A stretch of DNA of 64,000 nucleotides, from assembly GCA_965224195.1 (NCBI GenBank), contig OZ245040.1:864001-928000 (forward strand), in the 5' to 3' direction. Under the pieces are notes generated by a model. That model was not told the DNA's origin. It did no database searches and saw only the letters and a program-made list of their open reading frames with translations. How positions within the stretch are numbered: the stretch's first letter is position 1; every line of letters begins with the position of its first letter. A program made the translations under genes and the position numbers. Shown here in pieces: positions 4,795 through 59,186 of the stretch. This DNA is from Nitrosopumilus sp. (lineage in GTDB: Archaea; Thermoproteota; Nitrososphaeria; Nitrososphaerales; Nitrosopumilaceae).

Positions 4795-6963
4795 TTATCC
4801 GTAGAATGATTTATCCCCTGACTTTGGTACCACGTTAGATATACTTTCCTTTACTGTATTGTACCATTGGTCTACTTCTTTTGTGATTGATGGTTTGACT
4901 TGTTTCAAACTATTTGCAAAGTCATGACTTGAAATCTTTGATGAATCATTTCTCATTGCTTCGACTGCAGCTTCTCTGCATAATGCTGCCAAATCTGCAC
5001 CTGAATAATTTTGAGTGGCTACTGCAATCTCTTTTAATTTCACATCACTTGCTAATGGCATTTTTTGTGTTAAAATTTTGATAATCTCTAATCTTCCTTT
5101 TTCATCTGGTGGACTTACATAAAGCACCAAATCTAGTCTTCCTGTTCTGAGTAAAGAATTGTCTAAAACATCTGGACGATTTGTAATTCCAATAACTACT
5201 ACTCTTGATGAAATACCTTCTTCAATTTCTGTTAGTAACTGACTTAGGATTGTTTCACCCGTTCCACCATCTCCTGATTTGGAACGTGCAATGGAATCTA
5301 ATTCATCAAATATTACTACACATGGAGATGCTGCTTTTGCTTTTCTAAAAATCTCTCTTATTGCTTTTTCAGATTCCCCTAACCATTTAGAAAGTATTTC
5401 TGGACCTCTAACTAAAACCATGTTTGCTCCAGTTTCAGTAGCTAAGGCTCGGGCAAGTAGAGTTTTACCACAACCTGGTGGACCATAAATCAAAGCTCCT
5501 TTTGGAGGTTTTATCCCCATCTTTGTAAATTTGGCTGGCTCTTTCATAGACATAATGAGATTATCTGAAAGTGATTTTTTGATATTATCCAGTCCTCCAA
5601 CATCTTTCCACCATACTTTTGATCTTTCAACATAGAATTCTCTCATAGCTGTAGGAACAACTTCTTGCATTGCGTCGTAAAAGTCGATTAGTTTGATCTG
5701 CATTGATTGTAGTACTTCAGAAGGGATTTTTTCTGTTTCAAGATCAATCTCTGGAAGATATCTTCTGATTGATTTTAGAGCAGCTTCTCTACAAAGTGAT
5801 TTGATATCTGCGCCAGTATACCCGTGTAATTCTGATGATAAATCTTTAAGATCAATATCATCGCTGATTGGCATTCCTCTGGTATGAATTTCAAGAATCT
5901 CTAATCTTCCATCTTCATTTGGGACTGAAATCTCAAATTCCCTATCAAATCTTCCTGGCCTTCTAAGGGCAGGATCTACACTATCTGGTCTGTTTGTAGC
6001 TCCTAGAACAATTACATTTCCTCTATCATTAAGACCATCCATTAATGCTAATAGTTGAGCAACCACTCTTTTTTCTACATCTCCATATGCTTCTTCTCTT
6101 TTTGGTGCAATGGCATCAATTTCATCTATGAAAATAATGCTTGGGGAATTATCTTTTGCTTCTTTGAAAATATCTCTTAGTTTAGCTTCTGTTTCTCCAT
6201 AATATTTGTTCATTATTTCTGGACCATTGATTGGAAACATGTTTGCTTCTGATTCACTTGCCATAACTTTTGCAAGTAGAGTTTTACCACAACCTGGTGG
6301 GCCATAAAGTAAAATTCCACTATGTGGTTCGATTCCCAATCTTACAAATAATTCTGGATGTTTTAATGGAAGTTCAACAATTTCTCTCATTGCTTTTATT
6401 TCACGTCTTAACCCACCGACTTCTTCGTATGTTACTCTGACTTTTCTGTCAATTGAGGTTTCTGTTGAAATATTCAAATTTGTGGTACGGTCAATTTTGA
6501 CGACTCCTTTTGGAGTTGTCTTTGAAATTTTAAAATCCATAGAGTTTCCTAAAATCATAACTGAAATTTCATCTCCATGATTTATTGGCAATCCCTTCAA
6601 TCTATTTTTAACAAAGTCTGTGAATTCTTTGTCAACTGTAACTGAATCATTTACTGGTGTTAATGAAACTGTTTTTGCAAATTTTGATGTGACTTTTCTA
6701 ATTTTTACAAAATCATTTAATGATGCACCAACATTTTTTCTTGTTTGTCCATCTATTCGAATAATATCTGGCAATTTTTCGTCTTCATCAACTGGCCAGA
6801 CCACTGCACAACTAGATCTTGAACCCATCACTTCAATAATATCGCCTGGTGTAACTTTAAGAAAATCCATTGCTTCAGGACCAATTCGAGCACGTTTCTT
6901 TCCTACGTCTCGTTGCTTTGCTTCTCCAATTCTCATTTGCAAAGGCTCTTCTTTGCGTGCCAA
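4795..6963 (-). CDS. cdc48: CDC48/VCP family AAA ATPase
   Basis: N-domain plus two AAA modules (GPPGCGKT x2, IDEID/FDELD, RPGRFD). Confidence 0.96.
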   Translation of the reverse strand: MARKEEPLQMRIGEAKQRDVGKKRARIGPEAMDFLKVTPGDIIEVMGSRSSCAVVWPVDEDEKLPDIIRIDGQTRKNVGASLNDFVKIRKVTSKFAKTVSLTPVNDSVTVDKEFTDFVKNRLKGLPINHGDEISVMILGNSMDFKISKTTPKGVVKIDRTTNLNISTETSIDRKVRVTYEEVGGLRREIKAMREIVELPLKHPELFVRLGIEPHSGILLYGPPGCGKTLLAKVMASESEANMFPINGPEIMNKYYGETEAKLRDIFKEAKDNSPSIIFIDEIDAIAPKREEAYGDVEKRVVAQLLALMDGLNDRGNVIVLGATNRPDSVDPALRRPGRFDREFEISVPNEDGRLEILEIHTRGMPISDDIDLKDLSSELHGYTGADIKSLCREAALKSIRRYLPEIDLETEKIPSEVLQSMQIKLIDFYDAMQEVVPTAMREFYVERSKVWWKDVGGLDNIKKSLSDNLIMSMKEPAKFTKMGIKPPKGALIYGPPGCGKTLLARALATETGANMVLVRGPEILSKWLGESEKAIREIFRKAKAASPCVVIFDELDSIARSKSGDGGTGETILSQLLTEIEEGISSRVVVIGITNRPDVLDNSLLRTGRLDLVLYVSPPDEKGRLEIIKILTQKMPLASDVKLKEIAVATQNYSGADLAALCREAAVEAMRNDSSKISSHDFANSLKQVKPSITKEVDQWYNTVKESISNVVPKSGDKSFYG

Positions 6964-18654: not shown

Positions 18655-18820
18655 CTTTGATATCGCATGCTAACTGTATTCATACATCTGCGATAGTACA
18701 ACCAGTCTAACCTGTAAATGGTGCTTGTATCGTTCCTAGTTTTGGATGTATTCATACATCTGCGATAGTACAACCAGTCTAACAGGAGTCATAAGGAGTG
18801 TCCAATTGGGCACTCTTTCA
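18655..18820 (+). ncRNA. candidate structured ncRNA (interrupted by unit A)
   Basis: TATCGCA/TGCGATA stem enclosing TGTAT/ATACA; 3' hairpin GAGTGTCC/GGGCACTC then TTT; TATA-like TTTTAATA upstream; no ORF. Confidence 0.4.
18675..18783. repeat. unit A: 37-bp direct repeat, 35-bp insert
   Basis: TGTATTCATACATCTGCGATAGTACAACCAGTCTAAC at 18675-18711 and 18747-18783. Confidence 0.95.
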
Positions 18821-22419: not shown

Positions 22420-23298
22420 TTATGAGTTTAGTTGAGCATCAATTACTTTTTTGAAACTCTCAAATGGTTGGGCTCCTTTTAATTCAACAAATCCAATTTG
22501 ATCATTTCCTACAAAGAATCCTGGTGTTCCTGAAATTCCATAATTTCTTCCATCATTAAGATCATTTTGAATTTCTGGAATGTGTTTTCCACTATTGAGA
22601 CATAAATCAAATAATTCTTGATCTAATTGCATGTCTGATGCATATTGACTGAATAATGATAATGCATCACTAATTTCTAGTCTATTCCAATTATTTTGAT
22701 TTTCAAATAATGCATCATGCATTTCTCTAAACTTATTTTGATCATTTGCACATTCAGCTGCAACTGATGCTGGTAATGCATTTGGATGAATACTTTGAAT
22801 TGGGAAATCTCTAAAAACTAATTTCACTTTACCTTGTTCGATATATTCCTCTAATAGTGATGGTAATGTTTGAGTGTGGAATCTTGCACAAAATGGACAC
22901 TGAAAGTCTGAAAATTCTACAATGGTGATTGGGGCATCAGGATTTCCTATGATGGGATCATTGTCCATTGAAATTTTTACTGGTTCTGCTGCTTGTTTAG
23001 TAGGTAATTGGTTTTGTAATAATTTTAACTGATCAAAAGGAATGAAACCTTCGCCACTATCAGAATGTTTAGTAGGTAATTGGTTTTGTAATAATTTTAA
23101 CTCTAGTTTTGCTATTGCCTCATCAAGATCTACTGTTGAAATCTGGTTTGAATTTAGATTTGATGTGTATGATCCTGCAAAAAATGCTGTAATCCCGACT
23201 AGAATTATTATTCCTATGACCAATCCATTAAAAGTAGATTTTTTTACAGAAATCTTTTCATTATTATTTTGATTTATTTCTGAATCATCTAAACTCAT
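22420..23298 (-). CDS. DsbA family thioredoxin-fold protein (with 24-aa in-frame insertion)
   Basis: EFSDFQCPFC, GTPGF; N-terminal TM. Confidence 0.92.
   Translation of the reverse strand: MSLDDSEINQNNNEKISVKKSTFNGLVIGIIILVGITAFFAGSYTSNLNSNQISTVDLDEAIAKLELKLLQNQLPTKHSDSGEGFIPFDQLKLLQNQLPTKQAAEPVKISMDNDPIIGNPDAPITIVEFSDFQCPFCARFHTQTLPSLLEEYIEQGKVKLVFRDFPIQSIHPNALPASVAAECANDQNKFREMHDALFENQNNWNRLEISDALSLFSQYASDMQLDQELFDLCLNSGKHIPEIQNDLNDGRNYGISGTPGFFVGNDQIGFVELKGAQPFESFKKVIDAQLNS
22994..23102. repeat. unit B: 37-bp direct repeat, 35-bp insert
   Basis: TGTTTAGTAGGTAATTGGTTTTGTAATAATTTTAACT at 22994-23030 and 23066-23102. Confidence 0.95.
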
Positions 23299-32589: not shown

Positions 32590-33655
32590 GATAAGTTGTG
32601 CAATTAGTCCAATTTGAGTATAATCTCAACATTTTCTAATCATAAGATCCAAAGCTAAGGCTGAATTATTTTCAATTCATGTTTAATTGCACAAACTGGC
32701 AAAAAAACCAAAGCAATTCCTGCCAATAGCAGGACTGACTGTTCCACAGTTTGATTCCCTATACAAGGAAACAAAGAAAAATTGCAAAACTGCAGAACAA
32801 AAGGGACTGTCCAAAAACAGAGAAAGGGACATTGGTGCAGGACACAAGTTTGACTTGTCCTTCAAAGGCAGAATTCTAATGTTTTTCATGTACTACAGAA
32901 TGTACACAACATATGACATGCCAGGGATGACATTTGATTTGGACAAACCAAACGTAATGAGAAACATCGGATGTTTGGAGCCTGCAGTGAAGCAGTCCAT
33001 TGTAATTGCTGCCAAAAAATATGCAGACTCAAAAGAGATTAACGGCATGCAGGAACTGCAAGAATTCTTTCCGGAATTAATTGCAATCACTGATGGCACA
33101 GAACAGCCCATCCCAAGACCAAAAAACAAAAAGAAAAGAAAGGCACACCATTCAGGCAAAAAGAAAAAGCATGCAGTACAAAATCAAATCGCCATAAATC
33201 TTGATGGGATAACAATCCACAAATCTGCACATTCGCCTGGCAGCCATCATGATTACAGAATTTACAAATCAAAGCATCCAACATTATCTGAAGGGTTGCT
33301 GCAGTTTTATGATCCTGGATATTTGGGGATGGAAAAAGACTTTCCAGAACAGGCAAGTGTTTTGCCATACAAGAAAAAGAAAGGAAAAAAATTGACTGTT
33401 ACTCAAAAGGAGTGGAACAAGATGCAGTCAAAAATTAGAATAAAAGTTGAACGTGCTATTGCACAAGTCAGGCAATTTCGGATAAATCGCGATGTGTTTA
33501 GAAACAAATTATGCAGATATGATGTGACAAGTGAAATTGTTTGTGGGACTGTCAGTTTCAAGATTAAATGGAAAGAAGAATTCATTGCAATTCCATAAAA
33601 TTAAAAATTAAATGATAGAAAAGTTAGATTTTTGTTTGTAATTACGCAACTCATC
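32590..33655 (+). mobile_element. IS5-family insertion sequence (DDE_Tnp_4 type)
   Basis: Imperfect TIRs GATAAGTTGTGCAATTA / TAATTACGCAACTCATC; flanking TACTA duplication. Confidence 0.88.
32687..33598 (+). CDS. transposase (IS5 family)
   Basis: TDGTEQPIPRP, HSGKKK, YDPGY, RIKVERAI. Confidence 0.9.
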   Translation: MHKLAKKPKQFLPIAGLTVPQFDSLYKETKKNCKTAEQKGLSKNRERDIGAGHKFDLSFKGRILMFFMYYRMYTTYDMPGMTFDLDKPNVMRNIGCLEPAVKQSIVIAAKKYADSKEINGMQELQEFFPELIAITDGTEQPIPRPKNKKKRKAHHSGKKKKHAVQNQIAINLDGITIHKSAHSPGSHHDYRIYKSKHPTLSEGLLQFYDPGYLGMEKDFPEQASVLPYKKKKGKKLTVTQKEWNKMQSKIRIKVERAIAQVRQFRINRDVFRNKLCRYDVTSEIVCGTVSFKIKWKEEFIAIP

Positions 33656-33839: not shown

Positions 33840-35020
33840 ATGAAATTACTAGTAATTCTTGGTTTAGTTTTGCTTAGTTTTGTTTTGATGAATTATTCTA
33901 ATGATTTGGTGTATGCTCAATTTTCAAATCAGAATACTCTCAATGTAATCTTTGAAAATAATGTTTCTCCTTCATATGAAATGCCTCTAGTTCCAGGACA
34001 AACATTCACTCTAACTCAAAATCACTCTTGGGTTAATGATGAAACAAGTAGGTATAATCTTGAATCATATACTCTTGATGGTGAGAAAGTAAAAATTTCT
34101 AGAACTGCATGAGGAGATTTCACATTGAATATCTCAACTGATTCATCTCATGAAGTAGTCCTTTCAGCTGTACAACAATATGCCCTAAGTGTAGAGGGAA
34201 CAAATGATTCCTCTTTTCTTCCATCTTCTCCAACTAATGATAACTGGTTTGATGCAGGCTCTGAAGTATCATCATGTAAGAATCGAATAACAATTTTTTT
34301 TGTTTTAAATGATAACTGGTTTGATGCAGGCTCTGAAGTATCAGTTAACGTGCAAAAAACAACAGAAATTGAACCAAACAAGGTAGGACAAGAGATAACT
34401 GGCTGGTCATTAGACAAGGCAGAGTTTTGGGAAATAGATGATAATGGAAATACATCATTTACCACTCCTCCTGTATCTCTAAATGAATATCATTAGGTGA
34501 TTTCTTTGTTGCATATCAATACAAACTCAATGTAATTTCTGAATCTGGTGAAACTACTGGAAGTGGTTGGTATGAGCAGGGAATTACTGTCCCAATTGGA
34601 ATTGATGCAGGTGGAGATGGATTGGTGTTAAATTCTGTATCTGGATGGGATGGTGCAGATGTGACATATGATGGAAATATTGTCCAAGTGTTCATTGATG
34701 GTTCCGTAACTGTTTCAGCTAAAGTTGAAAAAAATTATTCTCTAATAATTGGAATGATTGTTATTCCAATATTGGTTATTGGTGTTGTTGGGTATAGAAA
34801 ATTCAAGAATAGACCTCCTATAGTAATTGAGAAGCCTGTTGAGCGAATTGTAGAAAAAGTCATAGAAAGAGTAGAGGCTCCGGAGAAAAAATATGAAGAT
34901 GGGTATGATAACAAACTCTCAGAATATTTATCAGAACAAATTCAATCAAAACTAGATGAGATGCTTTCATCTAAAATTATCTCTGAAACAAAATATTCAA
35001 AGATTAAAGAAACTCTATGA
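33840..35020 (+). pseudogene. secreted membrane-anchored protein, fragmented
   Basis: Signal peptide to C-terminal TM split by stops/frameshift across three ORFs. Confidence 0.75.
34236..34343. repeat. unit C: 36-bp direct repeat, 36-bp insert
   Basis: AATGATAACTGGTTTGATGCAGGCTCTGAAGTATCA at 34236-34271 and 34308-34343. Confidence 0.95.
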
Positions 35021-41277: not shown

Positions 41278-41605
41278 TGAAAATGGATGTGCACTTTACA
41301 TAGACACTGACCAAGTTTGTCGTCATACAAATTACATGACACAGCTCAGATCTAGCTATCATTTTAATTGGCCTTAAAATTGAATAAAAAAATTGTAATT
41401 ATTATATTAGTAATTTTTCTTACATTTTGGATAGGCAATGTCTTAAGATCTTTGCCTTTTAAGAAACCTTGCAGCAATATCCTCAATTTCTGACATGTCT
41501 ATTCTTTCAGACTTTGGGTGATTCACTGCAATGTACTCATCAACTACAGCCCTGCCATTCTCTGGGAAATAATGAGATGTCAAGTCTTTTGCTCCTGCAA
41601 AGTTA

Positions 41606-42481
41606 TCCAGAATAGACCTCTAGTTATCCATGTAATTGCAGTTGCTGCAAATATTATTAGAACAATTTTTTCATTTCTATTCCAATTTCCAAGATTTTTT
41701 AATTCTTCAGTGATTATGTTTTTGTCTTGGAGTATTGGTTTTTTGTTATCCAATCTTGCAGAAGTTGTCATGTATATCCATAATGCTAAAAGAGAAACAA
41801 CACTAACTGGAACTCCTACTAACATCCAATCAAAGAAAATTATCTCTACTCCTGCAAGCGAATCACCTAGAGAAGCAAAAGTGCATTAGGTGCAGTGCCA
41901 ATCATAGTTGACAACCCTCCCAGACTAGCAGCATATGCAACACTGAGTATCAAACATGTTGCAAATCTTTTTTTCTGTGCAACATCTGTTTGTGATATTA
42001 CTGCAACTGCAATTGGAAGAATTAACAGAGTAGTTGCAGTATTTGTAATCCAGGTACTCATGTATCCTGTAACAATTATGAATCCCAAAATGATATTTTT
42101 TGGTTTTGTTCCAACAATTTTCAGAGTGTTAAATGCAAATCGCTTGTGAAGATTCACTTTTTCTATTGTCTTTGCAAGTAGAAATCCACCCATTAGCAAA
42201 AATACCAACTTGTCACCATATGCAGAAATTACTTTGTCAATATCTGCCACATTAAACAGTGGAAATACAAACAATGGAATTGATGCAGTAACATAAAATG
42301 GAATTGCCTCAGTGGCCCACCAAATTGCCATCCATACAGATAATCCTAAAACAAGCTTTGCCTCAAAGGCTAATCCATCAATAGGGTATGAGATGATAAT
42401 AGAAAATAGAATTGGAGATAGTACAAACCCTATAATTCGTAGTTTACTGTGTAATGGACTCCAATTATTAAAATTAATCAT
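41606..42481 (-). pseudogene. SLC13/DASS symporter N-terminal half
   Basis: WWATEAIP, ITNTAT, IGTAPN; frameshift near 41880; truncated at RGLFW. Confidence 0.85.
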
Positions 42482-42507: not shown

Positions 42508-43185
42508 CTATCCCAAAATACATGAATTAGATTCAGAATCAAAAACAGTGCCAGCACCACATTTTGAATCAATTTCATCTGAACCTTGTGTGTTCACACT
42601 ACCAATAACACATGCATTTGTTTCAGGATCAAGCACAGTACCAGCACCACATTTTGAATCAAATTCACCATAGAAAATATCTTCATCTTCAATTACAGAT
42701 GTAGAAATTGTATCTGATGAGGAATCTAGCGCATTATCAAAATACCCTAGAGAATATCCAGATCCAAATAGTATCAAGATTAAAACAGGAACTCCAATAA
42801 TAATTGGAATTTTTAGTGGAATTGATTTTGAGAAACTATTAAATTTTGATTCAGGAATAGGTTGTGGATTTGCACCTATTTCAAAAATAGAAGTTCCACA
42901 AAGCATACAAAAGTTAGCACCTAACGGACCTTTTTTTCCACATTTCCAACAATGAATAGTTTCTTCATTTTCAGGTTCGTTTTCAAAAACAATCTCATCA
43001 GTTTGTGTATCAGTAGTGTGTTTAGCCAAATATTTTTGTCGTAAGTTTTTTAGATAATTTTCATCAGTAATCCAGATTTTTTTATTTTGAATAAATGTCT
43101 GTTTGATATGTTCTAATCGATATGGATCACCAACATCCAATTTCAATAAAGTATTAACTTCATCTACAATATCTGTGGAATCCAT
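42508..43185 (-). CDS. Zn-ribbon membrane protein with CGAGT repeats
   Basis: CWKCG...FCMLCG, TM, two DSKCGAGTV repeats. Confidence 0.8.
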   Translation of the reverse strand: MDSTDIVDEVNTLLKLDVGDPYRLEHIKQTFIQNKKIWITDENYLKNLRQKYLAKHTTDTQTDEIVFENEPENEETIHCWKCGKKGPLGANFCMLCGTSIFEIGANPQPIPESKFNSFSKSIPLKIPIIIGVPVLILILFGSGYSLGYFDNALDSSSDTISTSVIEDEDIFYGEFDSKCGAGTVLDPETNACVIGSVNTQGSDEIDSKCGAGTVFDSESNSCILG

Positions 43186-43257: not shown

Positions 43258-43363
43258 GTAGAAATGTCCAAGATGAATAGACCCAAATCCAGAAATCTTT
43301 TAGTTTATGGAAAACCTGGAACAGGCAAGTAGAAATGTCCAAGATGAATAGACCCAAATCCAG
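43258..43363. repeat. unit D: 35-bp direct repeat, 36-bp insert
   Basis: GTAGAAATGTCCAAGATGAATAGACCCAAATCCAG at 43258-43292 and 43329-43363. Confidence 0.95.
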
Positions 43364-43761
43364 TGTAAAACAATAGTAATTATTAAAATCTAGAAAACAA
43401 ACAAAGCATGTGAACGTTTTCCAGATAAAATTAGAAGTTGAAACATCAAAAGAAATTCTATTACAGACAATTTTAGAAAACAAGGAGAATTTGGATACAA
43501 ATATGATTGCAATTGCGATTAAAGATTATGTTAAAAACCATGAAAAATATGATATTGAGAAAAAAAGACTCTTAGATTTTATTTCAGATGTAAAAAAATA
43601 AAAAATTAATTTAGTTTTTAGGTTATTTTTGCCAATAGTTATGTGTGACTAGTATAGTTGACTTTGAATCATGCTGGAATTTTGGAGGATAATATTTCTA
43701 CAGTTTGAATATAATCATCAGAACTAAAAGGTCGCTTTTCATAACATTGTTCACATACAAG

Positions 43762-44215
43762 CCAGATTCCATGGGAAGTTTTGGTGTTGATTGGAGGAGG
43801 CTTGGCCTTGGCTAGTGGTTTTACTGCTACAGGCCTTGACATGTGGATAGCAGACAAGTTGTTATTTTTGGGGGAATTGGATTATTTTTTGATTGTACTA
43901 GTAATTGTTACAATTACAATGCTTACAAGTGAATTGATGAGTAACACTGCAGTAGATGCATTACTGTTGCCAATTATGGCAGTTTTAGGAGCAACCACAG
44001 AACTTGATCCAATTTTACTGATGGCTCCAGTTGCATTTGCTACAAGTTATGGATTTATGATGCCCGTTGGAACTCCTCCAAACGCAATTGCCATTGGAAG
44101 CGGATATGTATCAATCAAACAGATGGTTCGTTATGGATTACCATTTGATCTTATTTGCATTCCAATTATCACGGTAATGATAGTATTTTTGGTACCTTTG
44201 GTTTGGGGAAGATGA
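43762..44215 (+). pseudogene. SLC13/DASS symporter C-terminal half
   Basis: IPWEVLVLIGGG, MSNTA, MPVGTPPNAI; no N-terminus. Confidence 0.85.
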
Positions 44216-46226: not shown

Positions 46227-47484
46227 CAGTCGTGGGTTTATGATACATTCATCAGACGACTTAATGGTTGTTATAAAGGATGTCCTGTAGTGGTATAAGT
46301 AATAATACCATATGACAAGAATATCACTAAAGCGATGCAAACTTTTTGAGAACCTCAACACTAAGGGACTCCTCATGGTATTTTACCCCGTCTTTGTTTT
46401 CACTCTTTGTAATTATTACCCTGGGGCCGAGATCTTCTATCATCCTAACTATCTTCTTTTGTAGGACCATTACCAGGGAGAGTAGGGTATAATATTGTCA
46501 GTTATGATGTACTGGTGTCTTTACTGTTGCCAGTATGAGTATGGGAGAGGATATTTACAATGAGTGTTGAGGGTTTGTCAAAAAAACATCTTATGCAACT
46601 ACGAGAAGCTGGGACCAACTTTTATCCAACAAATAAGGATGGGAGAAAAGAGGGGATTTACAAAGATAAAGTGGTTGCCATAAAAAGAGAGGAGCAAATA
46701 TTTAGGACACTACAATCAACTGAGGAATTTGAGCATGCAATATCACAGCCGAATTTTTGTGCAGTGTTTACTACTAACTCTCTTGCATTTGTAATTGATG
46801 ATGATACTGAAGAAAATATCAAGGTGGCCAGAGACCACACCATATGCACGTACAGAAAAAAGATTGATCGCACAAGCTTCCACTATTTTGTAATTGCAAA
46901 AACCACGAGGATTTTGAAAAGCTTGCAGTAAAAGACGAGTATATCGAGCACCTTGAGGTGTTTACATATCATAAAATGCGCGTACTTGACGTCCAAGGCC
47001 ATTTTAGGCTTGACAACAACAAATCAGATCCCAAAGCATCATGGTTCCTAAAGGGTGGAGACTACCAAAGACTGCGGATATCCCCTCATTACATATGATA
47101 TGGCAAAGAACATACCAGAGTGGGGGTAAGCCTGATTCGTCTGGGGATGGCAAAAGCGTATCCCTGAAAAAATTTCAAGGAGTAGATATTAACAAGCCAC
47201 CAACACCACACATGACAAATACCAGATTTAACAGCATTGCAATAAAGTGTCTAAGTTATGAAGGCTGGAGTGATGAGAAGACATTAAAACACCTAGAGAT
47301 GCTAAATACAAAAAGAGCATATCCTCATACCAACGATCTAAAACAATATATCACCAATGCAAAAAAATACCTGGAGGATTTTAAAGATGATTTTAAGGAT
47401 GGCATCTACCCCATAACACTTGATAACCTAAATGATATAACAAACCCAAAATACGCAGACAAGCTTGTAACTGTTAGGGGAGTA

Positions 47485-47590
47485 GTATCAAGTAATATGA
47501 TATCATACAGCGTTCCATTTGTAAACAAAGCTGAGCTATTGAAGAAAGGTCTAATGGTATCAAGTAATATGATACCATACAGCGTTCCAT
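47485..47590. repeat. unit E: 34-36-bp direct repeat (1-2 mismatches), 36-38-bp insert
   Basis: GTATCAAGTAATATGATA(T/C)CATACAGCGTTCCAT at 47485-47518 and 47557-47590. Confidence 0.9.
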
Positions 47591-48526
47591 ACAAACTAAA
47601 AGTCAAATGCATCAATGAAGATGAGGGTCACATAACACATGACAATGAAGAAGACAGAACAAAGATTGTGACAATCAGAAAAAAAAACAATGCCTTTATT
47701 TGTTGATGCCAGTTATAGTGGAAAAAATAAAATATTAGGTCCAATATCGAAGATACCTTTTGATTCTAAATGTACCACTTTCTATAAGGAAAAAGAGCAT
47801 CTAACAATAAACAGGATGAAGATAAGGTCCATAATGCACTCACTAATCATTGATGGTAAAGAATTCCTAGATGATGATGAAAACAAATACTCCTCATATG
47901 ACATTTATGTACTGCAAAAGGATGCTGGCAACAATCTCACTGCTGGAAAAGAGATGGAGGTGAATGGATATGTTATTGCAGATCCCAAAAACGCCAAAAT
48001 CACAATCATGGCAGTACACGTAAGGGAACTAAATGAGAATAACTATAACATAGAAAAGATAAAGGAATTGCAGGTGCTTCACGCAGGCAAGTCACTACAA
48101 GAGATAGTGGACTGGTTTGCATCAGAGTTCACAAAATACACAAAGATAGTGAAACGCAAAGATCTCATATTAGGTGTCATCCTCAACATGTTTAGCTCAC
48201 TAGGTTTTGAGTTTGAGTATAAGATTGTACGTGGCTGGGTAAATATAATAGTAATTGGCGACTCTACTACGGGAAAATCTGAGATAGTGCGACTTGTGAT
48301 AAAACTGGCTAAGTCTGGGCAGATAGTAAGTGGTGAGATGGCAACTATCGCAGGAATTGCGGGTGCATCAATTCAGGCAACTGGTGGTCAATGGTTTACT
48401 GATTATGGACTATTACCATTACAGGACCGCAAGGCCTTATGGATAGATGGTGCACACAAGATACCAAAACATGAGATGGACAAGCTAGCAGAAGCTGAGA
48501 GGAGTGGAAAAATAGAGATAAACAAG

Positions 48527-48638
48527 GCATCAAAGGGCTCTGCATGGGCAAGAACCAGACAGCTGAGAGAGAAAGAATTGCAGCTGCCATTGCAGCTAAC
48601 TAGCATCAAAGGGCTCTGCATGGGCAAGAACCAGACAG
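48527..48638. repeat. unit F: 36-bp direct repeat, 40-bp insert
   Basis: GCATCAAAGGGCTCTGCATGGGCAAGAACCAGACAG at 48527-48562 and 48603-48638. Confidence 0.95.
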
Positions 48639-48672
48639 GGTAAAATTATGAACCCCCTTAATGATGAGGGGC

Positions 48673-48768
48673 GTGACACTACCACCATGAACAACTTTAT
48701 TTGAAATGGTGGGACACAACAACCAACGCTGCGATAGTGTGACACTACCACCATGAACAACTTTATTT
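48673..48768. repeat. unit G: 30-bp direct repeat, 36-bp insert
   Basis: GTGACACTACCACCATGAACAACTTTATTT at 48673-48702 and 48739-48768. Confidence 0.93.
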
Positions 48769-56181: not shown

Positions 56182-57179
56182 TTACTCTGTCAAACAAATC
56201 ATTTCTAACTAATGATTAATTTCATTTCCCTCAAACACTTGCAAATAAATTATACAGCTCGACTTTTAATTCCAATTCCTTTATCATGTATTTTCTTTTG
56301 TGAGCCATGACATACTCACCAAACATCCTTTTGAATGTAGAAAAGACACACTCTACAATCCATCTATTCCCATAGCTAACGCTGCGCTTCCACAAATCCA
56401 AATTATACATTTGAGCCAAAACTGATTTCTTTCGGGGATAACATTTTGTTTTGATAGATGATGTTTTTCTAACTTTAACTGCAGGCAGTGCATTTGTGTT
56501 GTGGTACAGATATGAAAAGTTGTTTTCTGAATCATATGCGCCATCAGCTAGAGCCTTGATTACATTTCCTTTGTACAATGCTTGTTGTACTAGTTCTGGC
56601 AGATGTGCAGGCATCATGGGATGAATCATCAATTATTTTCAGTGAAACTATTTTCTTTGATTTCACATCTGCACCAACATGGATTTTCAAGAATCCTTTT
56701 CTCATGTGCCATTTCTGTCGCATCCATTCACCTCTGTTTGCAACCTTGATTCCTGTACTGTCAATTGCTAAAATGATTTCATTGTTATCTCCAAGGAATT
56801 ATCAATTTTGATGTCAAGCTTGTTTATTCTCTTGTGGACTGGTGTAAAATCAGGAACTGATGGAATTCTATTACAATATGCACGAATCATTCCTTTCTGT
56901 TTGTCTGAATGGTAATCCAAAATAGATTCTGGCATAACCTGGCAATTTCATAAACGAGTCAGGATAGCCTGGACTTTCTACCTCTTTTGTTGTGATTCAT
57001 GACCTCTAGTTCTTTATGCCAGTTCTCAATAACATCAAATGACATGATGATCTTCACCTCTTCGGACTAGTTTTTCATTGTATTGACTCCAGTTAACCAT
57101 GAAAATAATCAGAATGTGAGATCCAAAGCTATTGTGGTGTAATGATATTGATCAGATTGTTATTTGTTCGACAAAGTAA
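56182..57179 (-). mobile_element. degenerate IS5-family element
   Basis: TIRs TTACTCTGTCAAACAAAT / ATTTGTTCGACAAAGTAA; frameshifted transposase from ATG 57100 (NWSQYNEKLVRRG...DSTG...ADGAYD...RWIVECVFS). Confidence 0.85.
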
Positions 57180-59060: not shown

Positions 59061-59186
59061 CAGGTTTGATGCCACACATACAACTGATAAACTATCCATT
59101 TTCAATTTAACACCGTATCGCACAATAACTGACAAGGCAACAGGTTTGATGCCACACATACAACTGATAAACTATCCATTTTCAAT
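59061..59186. repeat. unit H: 46-bp direct repeat, 34-bp insert
   Basis: CAGGTTTGATGCCACACATACAACTGATAAACTATCCATTTTCAAT at 59061-59106 and 59141-59186. Confidence 0.93.

Follow-up and report, generated by a model that had tools for sequence, protein, structure and literature searches.

Off-target integration by CRISPR adaptation proteins is so far known mainly from over-expressed Escherichia coli Cas1-Cas2 and from work in vitro, and its natural frequency, its cost and its part in the seeding of arrays are at stake. In E. coli over-producing Cas1-Cas2, off-target integration creates neo-CRISPR loci (Nivala, Shipman & Church, 2018, Nat Microbiol 3:310; as described in the accessible text of PMC7054753, PMC6698737 and bioRxiv 10.1101/148544), and the accessible part of the last of these calls the natural evidence for such integration in two other species “circumstantial” (bioRxiv 10.1101/148544). 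Cas1-Cas2 of the archaeon Pyrococcus furiosus integrates off target in vitro, at repeat-like sites (accessible text of PMC6698737). Two further systems share features with the locus described here: self-targeting spacers within canonical arrays (PMC6990116) and casposons, of which the family 1 casposase of Ca. Nitrosopumilus koreensis is an example from the same archaeal family (PMC8464041, both as far as the accessible text goes).

Here, we analyse a repeat-insert-repeat locus, unit D, in a 64,000-nt stretch of a Nitrosopumilus genome (the window; contig OZ245040.1, positions 864,001 to 928,000). Unit D is very probably the scar of an off-target (ectopic) Cas1-Cas2 spacer integration, or a “neo-CRISPR” unit, and as such it is a natural case of a known type of event that has rarely been documented in nature. 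It is an unusually well documented case, in which enzyme genes, empty sites, the source of the spacer and a control genome without cas1 point the same way; the genome-wide set of similar units is the more interesting result. A search of the full-text literature (supplements aside) found no reports of such scars in Nitrosopumilaceae.

Like the E. coli neo-CRISPR loci, unit D consists of a spacer-length insert and a repeat-length duplication at a non-CRISPR site, and the two cases also appear to share a need for adaptation genes and may share a target that partly resembles repeat ends (from the accessible E. coli text). The E. coli case involves a type I-E system, over-produced Cas1-Cas2 and 28-bp duplications, whereas the events here are natural, fixed and archaeal, occur alongside I-G and I-B modules, have 35-38-bp duplications, and number in the dozens, with donors known for eight. 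The P. furiosus work is alike in that an archaeal integrase puts spacers into non-CRISPR DNA at sites with repeat features and with ruler-set spacing (PMC6698737, accessible text); its targets were plasmids in vitro, while the scar of unit D is chromosomal and can be traced to a host-type donor. Within canonical arrays, self-targeting spacers also come from host-type genes (PMC6990116, accessible text). The spacer of unit D, by comparison, lies outside an array, is flanked by non-CRISPR repeats, and probably never gives rise to crRNA. Casposons span kilobases and make short duplications of about 14-15 bp; the insert here is 36 nt, and the genome holds three Cas1 homologues only, all beside arrays. 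What casposons have in common with unit D is an integrase of the Cas1 family, known from the same archaeal family, and integration with target duplication (PMC8464041, accessible text).

Unit D: insertion site and source of the insert

Unit D consists of two perfect 35-nt copies of GTAGAAATGTCCAAGATGAATAGACCCAAATCCAG, spaced 71 nt from start to start, which enclose a 36-nt insert. It lies between two divergent genes and upstream of both, 73 nt from the start codon of a zinc-ribbon gene and 47 nt from that of a small ORF:

42508..43185, minus strand: zinc-ribbon protein gene, 225 aa (Zn_Ribbon_1, 3.1e-06)
43258..43292, plus strand: first copy of the duplicated target (putative neo-repeat), 35 nt, identical to the second copy
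43293..43328, plus strand: insert (putative spacer), 36 nt, sense strand of an orc1/cdc6 Walker A (NLLVYGKPGTG), 34/36 to the host orc1/cdc6
43329..43363, plus strand: second copy of the duplicated target (putative neo-repeat), 35 nt, identical to the first copy
43410..43601, plus strand: small ORF, 63 aa, with DNA-level conservation in relatives

The 35-nt repeat has only these two matches in the window at up to 3 mismatches, none of 100 dinucleotide shuffles contained any match to it, and it occurs just twice in the entire genome of 2,067,682 bases (2 contigs). In runs X1 and X2, contigs end at the duplicated copies. The conserved A/T-rich boxes beside both start codons are intact and unit D lies outside them, with a conserved ATTATTAAAATCTAG box between unit D and the start codon of the 63-aa ORF. 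The surroundings, from 32000 to 60000, form a variable region that contains six of the eight two-copy units in the window as well as DDE transposase ORFs (32687-33595 and 56231-56629), and pieces of a DASS/CitMHS transporter lie on opposite strands around unit D (41580-42481 minus, 43781-44215 plus).

Comparison with relatives reveals the empty site. All five relatives that possess both flanks of unit D carry the target once, in diverged form, and lack the insert, leaving a 72-column alignment gap, and the segment measures 246-252 nt in these relatives compared to 321 nt here. A low-depth run contig from another related organism likewise skips 73 nt at this site. A single target copy without insert in 5/5 relatives indicates insertion with target duplication rather than an imported array. 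The same holds for two other window units, at 18675 and 22994, where the left-flank and right-flank alignments of these five relatives share 28-38 nt, so that a single copy without insert is present in 5/5 relatives at both sites.

The sequence-only reading had described the 36-nt insert of unit D as encoding NLLVYGKPGTG, and translation in the third frame confirms this (VYGKPGTG at 43303-43326). As it had also stated, this loop differs from the Cdc48 loop YGPPGCGKT (5461-5487 and 6280-6306, minus strand) and the MCM-like loop GDSTTGKS (48257-48280), both of which are present in the window. A scan of both strands of the genome with the insert, allowing up to 13 mismatches, gave one near-exact match on the minus strand at C1:195931-195966, with 2 mismatches (34/36), while the next best site had 11. 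The gene matched encodes a 402-aa protein with Cdc6_lid (7.6e-25), Cdc6_C (1.4e-19) and AAA domains in Pfam, and the match falls exactly on its Walker A, which bears out the earlier proposal that an Orc1/Cdc6-like Walker A fragment had been captured. The genome also has a weaker Cdc6_C paralogue, at C1:1112464, which the insert does not match at the nucleotide level.

The insert and the resident orc1 differ at two synonymous third positions (ACA vs ACT and GGC vs GGT). Of the 16 relatives examined, 15 have orc1 Walker A codons for SNLLVYGKPGTGK and one has codons for SNLLVYGKPGIGK; the corresponding 36-mer is 2-6 positions off from the insert in all 16, and the resident 36-mer is found exactly in three of them (G015, G017 and G021). 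The exact 36-mer of the insert was not found in viral_contigs, genome_contigs or metagenome_contigs, collections from which the window's own record was possibly left out. A protein-preserving degenerate pattern, fixed on ACAGGCAA, retrieved 65 metagenome loci and 23 genome loci, the titles of the genome records being almost entirely those of Nitrosopumilaceae and relatives. The best match outside this genome (locus L122) is identical at 35/36 positions, one better than the host itself, and natural orc1 alleles with the ACA-GGC combination exist. No viral contig with the pattern was found; there is thus no sign of a viral orc1 donor.

From these comparisons, the most likely donor of the spacer is an orc1 allele that is not resident in this genome and belonged to a different strain or species within the genus. 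The 35/36 outside match favours this, as do the synonymous nature of both differences (chance of 0.072 for two random substitutions), the absence of any change in the 70 nt of the duplicates, and the occurrence of the resident 36-mer in three close relatives, which indicates that the resident allele is ancestral. Donation by the resident orc1, with the two differences arising later, is unlikely on the same evidence, though it deserves some weight: the other self-derived inserts mostly match resident DNA at 97-100% identity, and none of the three public collections holds the exact 36-mer. The sequence-only reading had proposed a self-derived protospacer from the cdc6 of the host or of an element; the host-type orc1/cdc6 origin stands, while the resident copy is a less likely source than a congeneric allele. 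It had also expected the flanks of the genomic match to provide a candidate PAM. The coding strand carries CCATC before and AACAT after the protospacer, and the flanks of the eight self-derived protospacers in this genome have no shared PAM-like motif in either orientation.

Host CRISPR-Cas loci and the genome-wide set of units

The genome contains three CRISPR arrays, next to which lie its three Cas1 genes, each adjoining one array, together with three Cas2 genes and Cas4 or a Cas4-Cas1 fusion. These constitute three complete adaptation modules whose geometry matches that of the units. The neighbouring cas genes were named by NCBIfam and Pfam:

Array A1: 90 repeats of 36 nt, modal spacer 36-37 nt, period 72-73 nt; type I-G set with Cas4g/Cas1g fusion, Csb1, Csb2, Cas3g and Cas2
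Array A2: 69 repeats of 30 nt, modal spacer 36-37 nt, period 66-67 nt; type I-B set with Cas6, Cas7, Cas5, Cas3, Cas4, Cas1b and Cas2
Array A3: 132 repeats of 37 nt, modal spacer 35-36 nt, period 72-73 nt; I-B-like set with Cas7/Csh2, Cas5, Cas3, Cas6b, Cas1, Cas2 and Cas4

Array A2 contains an internal repeat-spacer duplication (C1:943550-943919), in which two consecutive spacers are repeated exactly 267 nt on. An orphan, degenerate two-repeat remnant akin to the A1 repeat (CTTCAATGGGACCGTAAC...) is present at C1:1626220-1626330, far from any cas gene.

Units of this kind were catalogued from a whole-genome scan for direct repeats, exact or near-exact, with offsets of 50-110 nt; curation by hand then excluded tandem and low-complexity rows and four doubtful loci. 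Among the latter, C1:146508 lies inside a coding tandem repeat, 1219629 is a three-copy coding repeat, and 1619794 falls in a repeat-protein region. A 25-nt pair at C1:196381/196443 has the wrong lengths for a unit and, from its position beside orc1, probably represents origin boxes.

About 39 isolated two-copy units remain in this hand-curated set, each with a different repeat. The duplications measure 36-38 nt in 27 of the 39 units and 30 nt in two, which mirrors array A2; the inserts measure 34-38 nt in 33, and the total length is 71-74 nt in 28. The two copies match perfectly in 28 units; in 9 units there is a 1-base difference between them, and in 2 units a 2-base difference. Outside offsets of 66-80 nt, the scan found no isolated non-tandem pairs of at least 30 nt, bar one in a repeat-protein region. 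Units with longer duplications tend to have shorter inserts (rho = -0.63), and three units have duplications far above the repeat length (46 + 34, 49 + 29 and 43 + 32 nt, duplication and insert respectively). The inserts are mutually unrelated, the best ungapped match of any two having 19 identities, and they do not fold beyond random 36-mers (mean MFE -1.53 vs -1.42 kcal/mol, P=0.88). Their GC content of 41.1% is close to that of array spacers (41.4%) and above that of the genome (33.7%; inserts against random 36-mers, P=2e-6).

Eight of the 39 inserts copy host DNA, mostly at 97-100% identity, and four of these eight are in the window. None of 288 array spacers matches the chromosome outside arrays (Fisher 2e-8 against the 8/39 ectopic inserts), which is the pattern expected if a self-spacer kills when it lies in an array and does no harm at an ectopic site. 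The window holds eight units, each with its own repeat (1.2 expected, P=2e-5), four units lie within 30 kb of A1 (1.1 expected, P=0.03), and C1:200-680 kb has none (9.1 expected). Reconstruction of the empty sites indicates that several units split long open frames, as at C1:739057, where a frame of 414 aa became frames of 327 and 120 aa, and that others insert 24-26 codons in frame. Besides unit D, the window contains the following units (duplication + insert; no strand assigned):

18675..18783: sister unit, 37-nt duplication + 35-nt insert; empty site in 5/5 relatives
22994..23102: sister unit, 37 + 35 nt, in frame in a DsbA-like thioredoxin gene; insert 35/35 to host C1:1253098-1253132; empty site in 5/5 relatives
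34236..34343: sister unit, 36 + 36 nt; insert 34/34 to host C1:207965-207998
47485..47590: sister unit, 34 + 38 nt, 1 mismatch between copies; insert 38/38 to a two-copy host sequence
48527..48638: sister unit, 36 + 40 nt, at the end of a truncated MCM-like ORF
48673..48768: sister unit, 30 + 36 nt, the other geometry, matching the 30-nt-repeat array A2
59061..59186: sister unit with long duplication, 46 + 34 nt

The 28-nt cores of two other window inserts had no match in viral_contigs.

Congeners provide a comparison with and without cas1. A Cas1 search in 40 congeners gave matches in 13. The complete 1.36-Mb genome of G010, which has no Cas1 match, was scanned alike and contains no unit of this geometry; its sole isolated row at an offset of 72 is a tandem repeat. 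In the Cas1-bearing G014, the scan covered the first 1.02 Mb, with one of the three cas1 neighbourhoods of this genome, and found 11 units, whose duplications measure 31-38 nt and inserts 35-41 nt, for totals of 72-74 nt. Its array of 140 repeats, whose 36-nt repeat is 3 positions off that of A1, lies beside a Cas4-Cas1 fusion, and 4 of the 11 units are found within 30 kb of this array (P=0.003). One of the G014 inserts is a 37/37 copy of that genome's own DNA. The presence of units thus follows cas1 across two comparison genomes, one of them partly sampled (0 in G010, 11 in the 1.02 Mb of G014, and 39 here). Within G014, C1:110030-125600 (loci L213-L214) holds four ectopic units in the 27 kb downstream of the 140-repeat I-G-type array, and insert GC averages 47% compared to 37% for the part of the genome scanned.

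Proposed integration event and its alternatives

The lengths of unit D (35 + 36 nt) lie close to those of the host arrays in which repeats measure 36/37 nt and spacers 35-37 nt. For the enzyme and the order of events, we infer the following. The Cas1-Cas2 adaptation complex of this archaeon, probably with Cas4, would have captured a prespacer of ~36 bp from an orc1/cdc6 gene, and this prespacer would have been joined to an ordinary intergenic site, and not to the leader-proximal repeat of an array. Two strand-transfer attacks, 35 bp apart on opposite strands, followed by gap repair, would then have duplicated the 35-bp target and left a neo-repeat, a spacer and a second neo-repeat. The responsible module is presumably one with 36-37-nt repeats, either the type I-G module with its Cas4-Cas1 fusion (A1) or the I-B-like module (A3), while the 30-nt-repeat module (A2) is an unlikely source of unit D. 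Several observations count against off-target integration: the 35-nt duplication is 1-2 nt under the length of either candidate repeat, the likeness of targets to repeat ends is modest and confined to a minority of units, duplication length falls as insert length rises, a few duplications far exceed a repeat, and the eight self-derived protospacers share no PAM despite the presence of Cas4 in the genome.

The target sites show modest similarity to repeat ends. An ATTGnAnC-like motif, resembling the repeat 3′ end, is located at or one base from the end of the duplication in 12 of 42 units (3.8 expected), and a match of at least 8/12 to the canonical repeat 3′ end is found in 6 of 39 units (1.0 expected); most units lack such similarity. 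The plus strand of unit D starts with GTAGAAATGTCC, identical at 8/12 positions to the beginning of the A3 repeat, while the minus strand ends with ATTTCTAC, which matches ATTGAAAC at 5/8, leaving the orientation ambiguous. Within the neo-repeat there is no counterpart to the 7-bp hairpin of the A1 repeat (0 kcal/mol for the plus strand), and an Rfam search of unit D found no CRISPR-DR family, returning only a sub-threshold chance match. A neo-repeat with neither an A1-type hairpin nor an Rfam family makes crRNA processing unlikely, and unit D is probably inert. Against the features of known elements, unit D departs from a canonical array in that its repeat occurs only twice in the genome, in addition to lacking the hairpin and the family, and the 39 unrelated, hairpin-free inserts are not those of a transposon or MITE.

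The alternative that fares best, though still very improbable, is a lineage-wide, Cas-independent process that adds about 72 nt by placing a short genomic copy and duplicating the target to a compensating length. The tight totals (28/39 at 71-74 nt) and the negative correlation of the two lengths are what such a process would produce, and the 8/39 inserts that copy their own genome, the lack of a consistent PAM and the three units with 43-49-nt duplications also agree with it. However, part of the negative correlation is to be expected, since a duplicate can by chance run on into the insert. The inserts do not form hairpins, and 31 of the 39 have no genomic source and a GC content as in array spacers. 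The two geometries (36-38-nt and 30-nt duplications) parallel the two lengths of repeat in the host's own arrays, and the cas1-less G010 has no units while the cas1-bearing G014 has its 11 in 1.02 Mb, clustered beside the array.

Filler-DNA capture at double-strand breaks is known in general terms, and the insert of unit D is chromosomal-type DNA, both of which favour repair of a break with stray filler, accompanied by a chance local duplication from end processing. Such repair does not predict a fixed ~36-nt duplication with a ~36-nt filler at 39 loci, a further 30-nt class, or the absence of units from a cas-less congener, and we regard it as more improbable still. A genuine two-repeat mini-array of a foreign system or mobile element, whether imported or decayed, would explain the repeat-spacer-repeat architecture and the CRISPR-like lengths, but is effectively refuted by the empty sites, where relatives carry a single diverged “repeat” copy as ordinary intergenic DNA at the orthologous position, and is further opposed by a repeat that is found nowhere else in the genome, has no Rfam CRISPR-DR family or stable plus-strand hairpin, and differs in every one of the 39 units.

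Possible off-target integration across the chromosome

Off-target Cas1-Cas2 integration, the preferred reading of unit D, leads to a broader and more tentative proposal, which we put at somewhat less than even. One adaptation module in this lineage of ammonia-oxidising archaea may integrate prespacers chromosome-wide and leave dozens of fixed scars, which would form an archive of naive adaptation unfiltered by autoimmunity and would make the integrase an endogenous mutagen. The type I-G module, with its Cas4-Cas1 fusion and 36-nt repeat, is the best candidate, since the congener G014 shares it. The archive follows if the scars are not made into crRNA, and about a fifth of the captured DNA would then be self or self-like. 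The role as mutagen, if true, rests on several disrupted long ORFs, one of them an MCM-like gene from a region rich in transposases. Taken together, the units suggest that adaptation often samples host-type DNA and that such spacers persist only where they are harmless, that integration is biased to the neighbourhood of cas loci and to dispensable regions, and that CRISPR adaptation can break genes. Unit D offers one natural event that can be dissected, with a donor gene, a target, empty sites and candidate enzymes, alongside about 39 sister events for statistics, and for archaea that grow slowly or cannot be cultivated, the scars provide a route from genome sequence alone to unfiltered preferences in spacer uptake.

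Three of the five uniquely placed self-derived protospacers (C1:195931, 207965 and 234869) lie within 39 kb of orc1 and a putative origin (P=5e-4, post hoc), which may reflect an origin-proximal hot spot of spacer uptake; in the archive proposed above, if true, the surrounding 40 kb would be over-sampled. Cumulative GC skew gave no origin signal, and the putative origin is placed from two boxes alone, the identical 25-nt direct repeats TAACCCCATTATTTCCACTCCAGGC at C1:196381-196467 (L012:10382-10468), which we take to be ORB-like from their resemblance to origin recognition boxes. They are 62 nt apart in an A/T-rich gap ~235 nt upstream of the orc1/cdc6 start.

Within the window, the region 47041-48768 has three integrations in 1.3 kb, comprising the units at 47485 (in an upstream ORF), 48527 and 48673. 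The MCM-like ORF at 47690-48640 (MCM P-loop, 7.4e-16) has just 317 aa, its end falling within the unit at 48527-48638. Further along, one contig of runs X1 and X2 has 14 other letters in place of the sequence between 58154 and 59247, at about a quarter to half of the local depth, which indicates that the sample also contains a form lacking these 1.09 kb and, with them, the unit at 59061.
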